Shown piece after piece: positions 35,504 through 40,051 of a stretch of DNA of 64,000 nt (position 1 is the stretch's first letter; each line of letters begins with the position of its first letter). Origin of the DNA: Candidatus Bathyarchaeota archaeon (GTDB taxonomy: Archaea; Thermoproteota; Bathyarchaeia; Bathyarchaeales; Bathycorpusculaceae); NCBI GenBank assembly GCA_963800495.1, contig CAWDBB010000004.1, positions 194,741 to 258,740 on the forward strand, in the 5' to 3' direction. The notes under the pieces were generated by a model, which was not told the origin of the DNA, ran no database searches, and saw only the letters and a list, made by a program, of their open reading frames with translations. Made by a program: the position numbers and the translations under genes.

Positions 35504-36502
35504 TTATCTTCCTGACAGAATTCGGGTATATGGGTCTTCGGCAACTTGCGGAAAAGGCGTTTCTTTTCCTTTTCTAATTAGAATACGTTCTTTGTTTTCG
35601 GTAAATTCCCCCAAAAAGTAGACCGAGAGCCCGAGCTCATTTAATGCGGTTTTTACTTTCTTTTGCGCTTCAGGAGCTACTCCACCCAAAATCGTTCCTG
35701 TCGAAGACATCGCGAGTAACTGGTCATCTGTTAGTTTAAAATGTTCTTTTAGCACGCCTGCTTCCTTTGGCACAGGAATTTTTTCCCAATCTACACTAAA
35801 CCCAACCTTTGAAGCCTCAGCCAACTCGTTGAGCGCCGCCACAAACCCACCTTCAGTCGCATCATGCATCGCATGAACACCCTCAACATTGGCAAGGCGA
35901 ATAGCTTCTTTAACGCAGCTCTGCATGCAAACCAGTTTGGCGAGTTCTTCTTGTTTGTCAACGCCAAAGAGCTCCTGCGCCTTCTCCGAATAGGTTAGTG
36001 AGAAGTTGGTGATTGTTTCTAACCCCAAGGGCTTTGTGCACAAAATCAGGTCTCCCGACTTGGCGTTTCCCGGCGTTATCAACTTCGTGGGTTCTACTGT
36101 TCCGTAAACAGTGCAGACTCCAAGCATATCATTGATACTGCCGTACATTCCTGTGTGTCCACGAACGATGGCGATGCCTAATTCTTCGGCTGCGCTGCAG
36201 GTTTGATTCATGATTTTTTGGAATACTTCAGGTTTTGTTCCTATTGGTCCAAGGAGATTTATGGTACAGAATTCTGGTTTTGCTCCAAACAGGGCCACAT
36301 CTGAAGCAGGATAATGAATCAAGAGCCAACCGAACCAATCTTCAGGAACCCCAGTACAGGGATCAGTTGCAACAGCCACGTACTTGCCATGTAAAAGGTG
36401 AACTCCTGCATCGTACCCAACCATAGGCGGGACTATGACTCGGAAATCCTTCTTGATGCAGCTTAATAGTTTTTTAAGGTCTTCCGTCGAGAGTTTTCCC
36501 AT
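35504..36502 (-). CDS. AIR synthase (PurM/HypE/ThiL)-fold protein
   Basis: MGKL, G.DAGV, TDP, SDVA..GA.P, GHT, GDLI..TK, MHDATEGG, SSTGT. Confidence 0.88.
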   Translation of the reverse strand: MGKLSTEDLKKLLSCIKKDFRVIVPPMVGYDAGVHLLHGKYVAVATDPCTGVPEDWFGWLLIHYPASDVALFGAKPEFCTINLLGPIGTKPEVFQKIMNQTCSAAEELGIAIVRGHTGMYGSINDMLGVCTVYGTVEPTKLITPGNAKSGDLILCTKPLGLETITNFSLTYSEKAQELFGVDKQEELAKLVCMQSCVKEAIRLANVEGVHAMHDATEGGFVAALNELAEASKVGFSVDWEKIPVPKEAGVLKEHFKLTDDQLLAMSSTGTILGGVAPEAQKKVKTALNELGLSVYFLGEFTENKERILIRKGKETPFPQVAEDPYTRILSGR

Positions 36503-36512
36503 TTTTCTTTCC

Positions 36513-37091
36513 TTAAAGGTAAATGTTTAGAGTTTTACTTCTCTGCAATAAGACAATAACGAATGCGCAGATAATAATGCTTGGCACCATGTACGTCGCA
36601 TTGTATATCGCTGAGTAAACAATTGGGCTCATTCCTGCTGGTGCATAGTTGGGAAAGTAGATTACGCCTGAAATGAAGTGAGACAGGAAACGACCTGTGC
36701 CGCCAACCACGACGCCGACAACTGGACCGATAACTTGGGGTTTTCGGAAAAAGCCTGCGAGTCCAAGACAAGCAAAGGCTAACGGATAATCAAGAATAAA
36801 TTGTGCTGGATTAACCACAAAAGGCTCAATTGCAAGGTCCACTACACCGAATACGGCGCCTGCAAATATACCGATTTTGGGTCCTCTTCGCAGTGCAAGC
36901 CAGAAGATAGGCACCATTCCAAGGTTTATTGAGCCTCCTTGAGGAAGACCAAAGAAGGAGTGGCTTACAAGAGCTAATGCGCCAGCCATAGCGACAAAGA
37001 TTATTATTTCTGCAAGAATTTTTGTTGGAAAGATAGTTTGACGTTCAGTTTGGAAGATATTTTCTTTAGGTTGTTCAGTATTTTGACTCAT
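36513..37091 (-). CDS. thiT: ECF transporter thiamine S-component ThiT
   Basis: LPQGGSI, P.Q.ILDYPLAF, RFLSHFISGVIYF..YAP.GM....YS..YN..Y; ATG 37091 follows GGAGGGA. Confidence 0.93.
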   Translation of the reverse strand: MSQNTEQPKENIFQTERQTIFPTKILAEIIIFVAMAGALALVSHSFFGLPQGGSINLGMVPIFWLALRRGPKIGIFAGAVFGVVDLAIEPFVVNPAQFILDYPLAFACLGLAGFFRKPQVIGPVVGVVVGGTGRFLSHFISGVIYFPNYAPAGMSPIVYSAIYNATYMVPSIIICAFVIVLLQRSKTLNIYL

Positions 37092-37095
37092 TGTT

Positions 37096-37190
37096 TTTCC
37101 CTCCGCCAGTATTACCTGGTTCAGGTTCCTAAGGGTCGACACCAAACAGGCGTCCTCTCAGCCGAGTCATTTTCCCAGCTCCCCAAGAAC
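37096..37190 (-). ncRNA. TPP (thiamine pyrophosphate) riboswitch
   Basis: Minus strand reads UUCUUGGGGAGCUGGG...CUCGGCUGAGAGGACGCC...GGUGUCGACCCUUAGGAACCUGAACCAGGUAAUACUGGCGGAGGGAA, containing the GGGG, CUGAGA, ACCC, ACCUGA, GUAAU and GCGnAGGGA consensus blocks. Confidence 0.95.
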
Positions 37191-37346
37191 TACGGAAAAT
37201 ATGGGTTTCTGTAACATATTAGGTTTGCTAAAGCTGATTTTTCTAGTTGTTGTCAAAAAACCCGGTTAAATAACAACGAACAGGTCACGAAGCATACAGC
37301 TCTGTGGTAAACCAACAAACGCAGTTCTCACATTTCTATAGCTGGT

Positions 37347-37380
37347 AGTAGTAGTCTAGTAAACCTCCTAGACTACTACT
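37347..37380. repeat. Perfect 13-bp inverted repeat with 8-nt spacer
   Basis: AGTAGTAGTCTAG-TAAACCTC-CTAGACTACTACT. Confidence 0.9.
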
Positions 37381-37556
37381 TCTAACTTTCAGTTTTTGTT
37401 TTGGGAAGATTGAAACAATTCTGTTCTTGCAGTGCAAAAGAAATCGATAAGCTGCTTCTCTTTTTCGCTTAAATCCTATTTTTCTTTCTTTTCTTGTTAG
37501 GGTAACGTTTTTAGGTTTTAGCATAGTTTGCTGATAGTCAAACAGTAACTACAGGA

Positions 37557-40051
37557 TTGATTAGCATGCAGCCTTTGCCTAAGGAATACAATTTTGCTGA
37601 GATTGAGCGTAAGTGGCAGCAGAAATGGGAAGAAATGGGCATTTACCATTATGACTGGAACGATAAAGTGCGGGTTCCTTTCAGCATAGATACACCGCCG
37701 CCTTACCCTTCAGGCGAATTGCATATGGGCAACGTCCTTAACTGGACATACTTTGACATGGTAGCACGGTACAAGCGCATGCAAGGCTTCAACGTTTTGT
37801 TTCCACAGGGGTGGGATTGCCACGGACTGGGCATAGAAATCCAAGTTGAAAAAGCCAGAAACATTCGCAAACGCGATGTCCCACCAGACCAATTCCGAGC
37901 CTGGTGCATTGAACTAGTCGAGAAGTACATTGCAATGATGAAGGAAGGCATCCTCAAGATGGGTGCAAGCATAGATTGGACCACCGAATACAAAACGATG
38001 GACCCAGACTATTGGCGCCGCACTCAACTTAGCTTCATTTTGCTTCATAAAAAAGATTACATGTATCGGGGAACTCACCCAGTCAATTGGTGTCCCAGAG
38101 ACGAAACCGCCATCGCCGACGCAGAAGTTGACCACATAAAAAAGGAAGGCACACTTCACTATATCCGGTTCCACCTTGAAGGAAGCAACGAATACCTTCT
38201 AATCGCCACTTCACGCCCCGAGTTTATCCCAGCATGCGTTGCAGTGGAAGTTAACCCCAAAGACGAACGCTACAACAAATACATCGGCAGAAAAATCTCT
38301 GTACCCCTCATGAACCGCGAAGTAACCATCATCCCCGAGGAGTCAGTGGACCCCTGTTTTGGCACGGGCGTCGTCCAAATCTGCACGTACGGCGACAAAG
38401 AAGACGTTAAAACCGTCATAAAACACAAACTCCCAGTCATCAGGCTCCTAACCACAAACGGGCAAATCAGCGAAGCAGGCTGCAAATACGCGGGTTTATA
38501 CGTTAACCAAGCACGCGCAGCCATAGTTGCCGATTTAACCGCTGCAGGACTGCTCGAGAAAACCGAGAAGATTCAGCAGGAAGTCGGCGTCTGCGATCGC
38601 TGCAAAGCCCAAGTAGAAATCCTCGAGGTTAAACAGTGGTTCATGAAAGTTCTACCATTATCCGACGCCGTAGTGAATAACGCCCTCGAAATCCCTTGGT
38701 ACCCCGACTACATGAAAAACCGCTTAATCGACTGGACCCGCGCCTTGGATTGGGATTGGGTTGTCAGCCGCCAACGCCTGTTCGCGACGCCGATTCCAGT
38801 GTGGTACTGCAAAAGCTGCGGCGAAGTCATCGTGGCAGAGGAAAGCTGGGTGCCGATTGATCCCCGAATGGAAAAACCAAGAATTGACAAGTGCCCCAGA
38901 TGCGGCGGAACGGAATTCACGGGTGAAACCGACGTGCTTGACACGTGGATGGATAGCTCAATCACCTGCGCTGTACACGCTGGCTGGCCCGACCGCCCAG
39001 ACTGGAAACACCTGTTCCCCGCAAGCATGCACCCGTCAGCGGCACAGACATAATCCGAACCTGGGCATACTACCTCATGGTACGCCATTTAGCCTTATTC
39101 GACCAGCGACCTTTCAACAGCGTCCTCATAAACGGCATGGTTCTCGGCGCTGACGGCAGAAAAATGAGCAAATCCCTCAAAAACTACGCTGCAGCACCTG
39201 AGGTTCTAAACAAAAGCGGCGCCGACGCAACTCGACAGTGGGCGGCTGGCGGAGGAGCAACAGGCTCAGACATTCCCTTCCGCGTCCAAGACGTCGAATA
39301 TGGCAGACGCTTCCTGACCAAGCTCTGGAACGTCGCTGGGTTTGCAAGTAACCTTTTGGCAGACTACGACCCTAAAGCCTACGCCCAAGTTGACCTGCAA
39401 CCGCTTGATAAATGGATTTTAAGCAAAACTGAAAATCTCATTAAAAAAGTCACCGAAGCTTATGAAAAATGCCAATTCAACATAGCCATCGAAGAAATCC
39501 GCAACTTCACCTGGCACGTCTTCTGCGACTACTACATCGAATCAGTCAAAGACCGACTCTACCGCCAAGAAACAGAAAACCTGCCTGCAAGACGAGCTGC
39601 GCAGCAGACTCTCCACGACGTCTTCTACAAGATTCTGCAGTTGCTAGCACCCATTACACCCCATTTGACTGAGGAAATATACCAAAACATGTACGCTCAA
39701 GCTAAGGGCTTTGTAAGTTTACAAATCACGCCCTGGCCAAAAATGGACAGTGCACTCGTTGATAATACGGCGGAAGAGGAAGGCGACAAAGTGATGGCAC
39801 TAATTGAGGACTTGCGAAGAAAGAAAGCAGCCCAAAAGCTGCCGCTGAACATTCCCATTCTGTCGCTGGAAGTCTACACAACAAACCAATCAAACGCCGA
39901 CCTAATCAACCAAAGCAAAAACGACATAGCCGGAACACTCAAAGTTGTAGGAGACTTCAAAATAATTCCACAAGCTGGCACGGGACAAGAAGTGCCGCAG
40001 TTTCCAGGAGTAATTCCCGTCGCTGTTTTTGGAGTGGCAAATAAAAAATGA
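37557..40051 (+). CDS. valS: Valyl-tRNA synthetase (apparent frameshift at ~39040)
   Basis: DTPPPYPSG.LHMGN, GWDCHG, W.VSRQR, DVLDTWMDSS; second frame resumes GTDIIRTWAYY...KMSKS. Confidence 0.93.

Follow-up and report, generated by a model that had tools for sequence, protein, structure and literature searches.

A TPP riboswitch that probably controls thiT by direct translation attenuation in Bathyarchaeia

We analyzed a window of 64,000 nt (that is, the whole stretch of DNA under study) from the genome of a Candidatus Bathyarchaeota archaeon (assembly GCA_963800495.1, contig CAWDBB010000004.1, positions 194,741-258,740 of the forward strand). The genome is 2.37 Mb and 86.6% complete. Directly upstream of thiT, a thiamine-transport gene, we found a TPP riboswitch that occupies the 5' leader. 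This riboswitch probably turns off the thiT operon by direct translation attenuation: it has no expression platform, and nucleotides of the aptamer would themselves be the ribosome-binding site. The host appears to be a thiamine auxotroph, and TPP riboswitches turn out to be widespread in its class.

In a cmscan of the window, the TPP family (RF00059) matched at 37195..37081 on the minus strand with 60.4 bits (E = 2.3e-9). The gathering score of this family is 54.3 bits, and the match covers the full length of the model (positions 1-105). The window's only other Rfam match above the gathering score was a tRNA, and a permissive rescan of 36900-37600 gave no further match. A search of the entire genome returned the same match (E = 2.0e-11) as the sole TPP riboswitch in 2.37 Mb. 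All of the motifs of the ligand pocket are present, namely CUGAGA (J3/2), ACCUGA (J2/4-P4), GCG-AGGGA (J5/4-P4-J4/1), and a UAAU-type P5 loop, and these are invariant in 20 aligned relatives. The conserved motif CUGGCGGAGGGA ends at 37098, and the P5 hairpin is present too. An earlier note on this DNA, made from the letters alone, had described a full consensus TPP aptamer in an archaeon outside the Thermoplasmatales, and both parts of this description were borne out: the covariance model scores the element above threshold, and the host belongs to the Bathyarchaeia. By family membership, the element upstream of thiT is a genuine TPP riboswitch, and it presumably binds TPP. The features of the locus, all on the minus strand, are as follows.

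37215..37228 (-): promoter-like BRE/TATA element, GCAAACC-TAATAT-G, about 37 nt upstream of the GGGG of the aptamer
37081..37195 (-): TPP riboswitch aptamer, matching Rfam RF00059; the structural core is 37190-37093
37186..37190 (-): 5' strand of P1, GUUCU, from the Rfam alignment; it pairs with AAAAC at 4/5 positions, with one C-A mismatch
37156..37161 (-): CUGAGA (J3/2), the pyrimidine-sensor motif, invariant in 20/20 aligned relatives
37127-37121 (-): AACCUGA, a conserved motif of the TPP aptamer
37100..37125 (-): P4/P5 pyrophosphate-sensor arm, CCUGAACCAGGUAAUACUGGCGGAGG; P4 and P5 are 100% paired in 95 relatives
37100..37104 (-): predicted Shine-Dalgarno sequence, GGAGG, formed by the G of J5/4 and the 3' strand of P4; it matches the 16S tail
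37093..37097 (-): 3' strand of P1, AAAAC, from the Rfam alignment; it lies within the spacer between the Shine-Dalgarno sequence and the start codon and ends 1 nt before the ATG
36513..37091 (-): thiT, 192 amino acids, with start codon 37091-37089; PF09515 and TIGR02357
35504..36502 (-): gene of the AIR-synthase/PurM family, 332 amino acids, starting 10 nt past the thiT stop codon; Pfam AIRS and AIRS_C

The GGAGG sequence is part of the aptamer. In the Rfam alignment, it corresponds to the G of the J5/4 "CG" plus the 3' strand of P4, and it is followed by J4/1 (GA). Its first G replaces the consensus u, so that P4 has a G-G mismatch at its inner end. The 16S rRNA from the same genome ends with ...GAUCACCUCCU; its 3' end reads CCUCCU, and the CCUCC tail is a perfect 5-bp complement of GGAGG. 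The spacing from GGAGG to the ATG at 37091 is 8 nt, which is within the genome-wide peak of 7-10 nt. If we use a crude gene model (the first ATG of each long open reading frame), then GGAG and GAGG are about 4-fold enriched before first ATGs as compared to internal ATGs; by the same crude model, about 10% of first ATGs are preceded by GGAG, which amounts to a modest use of Shine-Dalgarno sequences. The earlier note was correct that the Shine-Dalgarno sequence is inside the aptamer, but had identified it with the 3' strand of P1, which is the AAAAC further downstream. The predicted site is within the pyrophosphate-sensor arm and outside P1.

This design is conserved. We compared 123 distinct related aptamers and term close-coupled the 93 in which a start codon is found no more than 10 nt from AGGGA. 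The variable position is a G, giving GGAGG, in 78 of the 93 close-coupled aptamers, versus 13 of the 30 that are not directly coupled. Also, the spacing from GGAGG to the start codon is 7-9 nt in 73 of the 93. The fixed geometry and the change from u to G, which comes at the cost of a pair in P4, indicate selection on ribosome binding. Together with the 16S match and the 8-nt spacing, the comparative evidence supports a direct translational OFF switch, as the earlier note had proposed.

We propose that the switch would work as follows. The ribosome-binding site would be GGAGG itself, whose J5/4 G lies next to the pyrophosphate pocket, and the A-rich spacer up to the AUG would be the 3' strand of P1. 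If there is little TPP, both P1 and the junction would be open and the 3-bp P4 would breathe, so that the CCUCC tail of the 30S subunit could pair with GGAGG and ThiT would be made. When TPP is bound, the two sensor arms would dock, P4 and J5/4 would be locked around the ligand, and P1 would close up to 1 nt before the AUG. The Shine-Dalgarno sequence and the spacer would then be buried, and initiation would be blocked. The J5/4 G presumably contacts the pyrophosphate-Mg complex, as in the structures of thiM from E. coli. Upon TPP binding, modulation would be expected at CUGAGA and at the GCGGAGGG strand.

The position of the promoter-like element fits with a short leader. In many Bathyarchaeia loci, TAATAT or AAATATA and a preceding A-rich, BRE-like stretch are found at a constant distance from GGGGAGC, in flanks that are otherwise divergent. 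From the element in the window, we predict that the transcript starts near 37195 (within 5 nt), which would leave almost nothing in the 5' leader of the thiT mRNA besides the aptamer. A scan for bacterial sigma-70 promoters gave matches that were no commoner than in shuffled sequences; this consensus is bacterial and is not applicable to an archaeal host. We also noticed an inverted repeat at 37340-37387 (20 nt, 85% complementary, with an 8-nt loop), between the thiT promoter and the gene for valyl-tRNA synthetase (ValRS). A candidate long-range pairing of the 5' flank with codons 5-7 of thiT was inconsistent between species in 36 leaders compared by eye, and we rejected it.

We found no terminator-like site in 36400-37600, and no U-tract or terminator-like element between the aptamer and the coding sequence. 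With only 1 nt between the 3' strand of P1 and the ATG, neither a terminator nor another kind of expression platform could fit in. This agrees with the earlier note, which had reported no terminator. The mRNA is predicted to begin at or close to the start of the aptamer, which could point to another mode of action, in which TPP binds but acts mainly at the RNA level instead of by blocking the Shine-Dalgarno sequence. Folding at the 5' end could affect 5'-end-dependent decay, by protecting the mRNA from archaeal RNases or exposing it to them, or the aptamer might cause pausing or termination early in the coding sequence; also, P1 is too weak to be an obvious clamp on the Shine-Dalgarno sequence. 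We consider this explanation unlikely, given that the region lacks terminator-like elements and U-tracts, and given the fixed distance to the start codon and the lineage-specific substitution that perfects GGAGG while breaking a P4 pair.

To examine the conservation of the fold, we aligned 95 related aptamers to a model derived from 20 relatives. Standard pairs are formed in 92.1% of the cells, as compared to 84.0% in shuffles and at most 51.6% if the partners are slid, and none of 500 shuffles reached the observed covariation score. P3 is 99.3% paired, with compensatory changes. P3a is 96.8% paired, and both sides change at all six of its pairs. P5 is 100% paired, with an exchange of AU for GC at one pair. 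P2 and P4 hardly vary, with a single G-U change in P2 as the only one in either helix, and P2 has mismatches in the window's genus.

P1 is more variable. Across the class, 61.7% of its cells pair. It is strong and covaries in some other families (GGUCU/AGACC, GGUUU/AAACC, or AGGGU/ACCCU), while in the window's genus it has few A-U pairs or none, and it is nearly absent in several species. The pairs in the window (GUUCU/AAAAC) are mostly A-U, and RNAalifold did not predict P1 from 20 relatives from the genus and the order. With so weak a P1, part of the occlusion model depends on tertiary docking alone. The nearest-neighbor model gives -28.8 kcal/mol for the canonical aptamer fold and -37.9 kcal/mol for a species-specific alternative, a difference of about 9 kcal/mol in favor of the latter, and it has the AGG of the Shine-Dalgarno sequence paired within P4 even when no ligand is present.

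The degenerate P1, the mismatches in P2, and a score that is only 6 bits above the cut-off might suggest that the aptamer is decaying or has been repurposed, so that it no longer responds to TPP and is now a constitutive structured leader that carries the Shine-Dalgarno sequence. We think this is very unlikely. The motifs of the pocket are invariant across the 95 relatives and the helices covary, which implies purifying selection on the fold. Also, the aptamer and promoter are 93.6% identical between two species even though the thiT reading frame has been replaced.

The earlier note had also pointed to a complementarity between UGACUC in the P3 region (37169-37164) and GAGUCA at the start of the coding sequence (37089-37084). 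The complementarity does exist in the window, and the two segments are paired in the predicted ligand-free MFE fold, but it is not conserved: any 6-nt match of this kind is found in just 2 of 93 distinct relatives. Locus L016 has an identical aptamer and a different start of the coding sequence, and L021 has the same start and a different P3, so the pairing is broken in both. Furthermore, this helix would break up P3 and, with no ligand bound, hide the start codon, which is the wrong logic. We rejected it as part of the switch and attribute it to chance.

TPP riboswitches are the rule in the Bathyarchaeia. RF00059 is present in 22 of the 24 other genomes sampled from the genus and in 6 of 16 that represent other families in the same order. 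Over the whole class, 107 of the 151 genomes sampled (about 70%; 48 of 76 genera) have it, with one to four copies each. In a phylum-wide sample, it was also found in four families outside of the class. PF09515 (ThiT) is present in 85 of the same 151 genomes, mostly adjoining a riboswitch. ValRS is the divergent neighbor in 49 of the loci that we fetched. The class-wide presence and this conserved synteny indicate that the unit is old within the class and is neither the product of a chimeric contig nor a recent acquisition. The earlier note had allowed that the contig might be chimeric here, which we reject; its suggestion that the riboswitch was probably acquired along with a bacterial-type thiT is not supported as a recent event; and the rarity that it implied was overstated. 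The survey of related metagenome-assembled genomes that it called for is what revealed how common the riboswitch is.

These results also bear on a composite alternative, in which the 3' strand of P1 is the Shine-Dalgarno sequence, the switch includes the helix between P3 and the coding sequence, and the riboswitch and a bacterial thiT were gained together in a recent transfer. The 6-nt complementarity that forms in the MFE fold fits with this scheme, as does the distribution of PF09515 in 14 control genomes, where Bacillus, Lactococcus, and Thermotoga had it and the remaining controls, including all four archaea, did not. However, GGAGG aligns to J5/4 and P4, the pairing occurs in few relatives and would have the wrong logic, and the unit is class-wide and syntenic. 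The helix assignment and the recent transfer are largely refuted, and we give the scheme as a whole very little credence.

With few exceptions, the best 80 ThiT loci from the genome collection belong to genomes titled Bathyarchaeia or Bathyarchaeota, which are metagenome-assembled genomes from peat and soil. Five of these 80 have other titles: two are "Thermoproteota archaeon," one is "MCG-6 archaeon," one is "uncultured archaeon," and one is "Limnocylindrales bacterium." The contig titled "Candidatus Limnocylindrales bacterium" (L036) has the same arrangement of riboswitch, thiT, AIR-synthase-family gene, and ValRS as in Bathyarchaeia, and it is probably mis-binned. Two AIR-synthase-family proteins titled "Chloroflexi bacterium" (P0047 and P0110) are 75-78% identical to the window's protein and may likewise be mis-binned.

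In relatives, the riboswitch also precedes genes for ThiW, an NCS1 permease, a solute-binding protein, and proteins with a ThiN domain, so its targets across lineages are the ordinary thiamine regulon. In three loci (L004, L020, and L041:28-115), the same riboswitch precedes a different ECF S component, which has a weak match to PF07155 and is not ThiT-like. One of these genomes belongs to the window's genus, and L041 has both kinds of S component about 1.3 kb apart. The substrate of the PF07155-like S component is perhaps a thiamine precursor.

The thiT product is predicted to be the S component of an ECF transporter for thiamine. It is above the cut-offs for both PF09515 (160.9 bits) and TIGR02357 (148.3 bits, with a cut-off of 108.45), and it is similar to ThiT from Lactococcus lactis (PDB 3RLB; E = 4e-15). 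As to the energizing module, the genome has one CbiQ/EcfT gene elsewhere (123 bits). We did not find ThiC, ThiE, ThiN, or thiamine pyrophosphokinase (TPK) in the 86.6% complete genome. Matches to Thi4 were limited to short N-terminal stretches (33-48 model positions) in larger proteins, and a true ThiL is present (255 bits). By its gene content, the host looks like a thiamine auxotroph that imports the vitamin. With ThiC, ThiE, ThiN, and TPK absent and with ThiL and EcfT present, feedback control of uptake is physiologically sensible.

The AIR-synthase-family gene downstream of thiT is probably co-transcribed with it and hence part of the riboswitch-controlled unit. A gene of this family follows thiT, either directly or past one intervening gene, in 89 of 111 thiT loci. 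The protein is below every NCBIfam cut-off (SelD, ThiL, and HypE), is 26% identical to the genome's true ThiL, and carries labels such as "HypE" or "AIR synthase-related" in public databases. Because the genome lacks TPK, ThiE, and ThiN, we view this gene as a candidate for the missing thiamine kinase. A more ambitious and tentative idea, which we find less likely than not to hold as a whole, is that a class-specific salvage module combines this gene, as a thiamine kinase that feeds ThiL, with a P1-poor minimal riboswitch in which TPP and the ribosome compete for the same nucleotides, the Shine-Dalgarno sequence being the strand of the pyrophosphate pocket.

Within the genus, the thiT reading frame has been exchanged as a cassette, as seen by comparing L001 and L016. 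Their DNA is 93.6% identical from the start codon upstream through the aptamer, the promoter, and ValRS, and 88.5% identical in the AIR-synthase-family gene. For thiT itself, blastn gives no match and the proteins are 47% identical. Two types of ThiT occupy this slot within the genus, with about 82-86% or about 44-48% identity to the window's ThiT. On the other side of the riboswitch, the ValRS gene (37557-40051 on the plus strand) is split into two open reading frames by a single frameshift near 39040-39075: the reading ...HLFPASMHPS resumes in another frame as ...GTDIIRTWAYY.... This frameshift, in an essential gene, is most likely an assembly or sequencing error.

In many archaea, thiamine genes are reportedly controlled by ThiR, a transcription factor with a ThiN domain that Rodionov and colleagues are said to have described in 2017. 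ThiR has the same task as the riboswitch, which is feedback repression of the genes for thiamine uptake and synthesis, but it is a protein that acts on transcription. The ThiN domain (PF10120) had no match in the window's genome (86.6% complete) or in any of seven sampled genomes of the genus, so we expect neither a ThiD-ThiN synthase nor ThiR. In the window's family, the riboswitch is present in 20 of 20 genomes and ThiN in 2 of 20. Across the class, there are three regimes: the riboswitch without ThiN, which includes the window's family; ThiN without the riboswitch; and both. In families with both, ThiN genes adjoin copies of the riboswitch. The finding also marks out lineages of Bathyarchaeia as auxotrophs or as prototrophs for thiamine.

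Archaea are commonly held to have few riboswitches, which gives weight to their occurrence across this class. Archaea are said to "sparingly use very few" riboswitch classes, and by phylum, the number of riboswitches over all classes is given as 79 for Euryarchaeota, six for Crenarchaeota, and one each for Korarchaeota and Thaumarchaeota (McCown et al. 2017, PMC5473149). We found one to four copies of the TPP riboswitch alone in most of the sampled Bathyarchaeia genomes. According to a 2021 paper (PMC8241225), the fluoride riboswitch is the only natural archaeal riboswitch that has been determined experimentally. Our literature search found no paper on TPP riboswitches in Bathyarchaeia; an earlier tabulation in Gupta & Swati 2019 or in Rfam species lists is possible. 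Judging by these genomes, the TPP riboswitch would be the normal regulator of thiamine uptake and synthesis, via the Shine-Dalgarno site, in one large uncultured class of archaea. At about 105 nt, such a natural translational switch from archaea is compact, and it could find use as a genetic tool as well.

It is useful to compare this riboswitch to known systems. TPP (THI-box) riboswitches of the Thermoplasmatales were reportedly described by Rodionov and colleagues in 2002. Likened by description, they too are archaeal and precede thiamine transport genes, but the Bathyarchaeia belong to a different phylum (Thermoproteota). The thiM riboswitch of E. coli has the same aptamer architecture (P1-P5, CUGAGA, and the pyrophosphate arm) and OFF control of translation initiation, but it has an additional platform downstream of the aptamer, with an anti-Shine-Dalgarno and an anti-anti-Shine-Dalgarno sequence, whereas here the start codon is 1 nt past P1. 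In another class of Thermoproteota (L131-L135), a TPP riboswitch precedes the gene for a solute-binding protein, with a 50-nt platform that includes a CUCCUUC-like anti-Shine-Dalgarno sequence. This is a conventional sequestor, unlike the design in Bathyarchaeia.

The closest parallel is the direct translation attenuation class of TPP riboswitches, which was described in bacteria, most often in Actinobacteria and Cyanobacteria (Barrick & Breaker 2007, PMC2258182). The mechanism itself is not new, and the distribution across an archaeal class is the main point of interest. As in that class, the ribosome-binding site here is in the conserved core of the aptamer, and no platform separates the aptamer from the start codon. 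The aptamer family and the kind of gene regulated (a thiamine transporter) are the same, and in both, a conserved, purine-rich stretch toward the 3' end of the aptamer is also the ribosome-binding site, which makes a platform unnecessary. The Bathyarchaeia differ in that the host is an archaeon and in that a G is fixed before AGGGA, which yields a perfect GGAGG at the loss of one P4 pair. The window's genus differs further in that P1 is reduced to a few A-U pairs.
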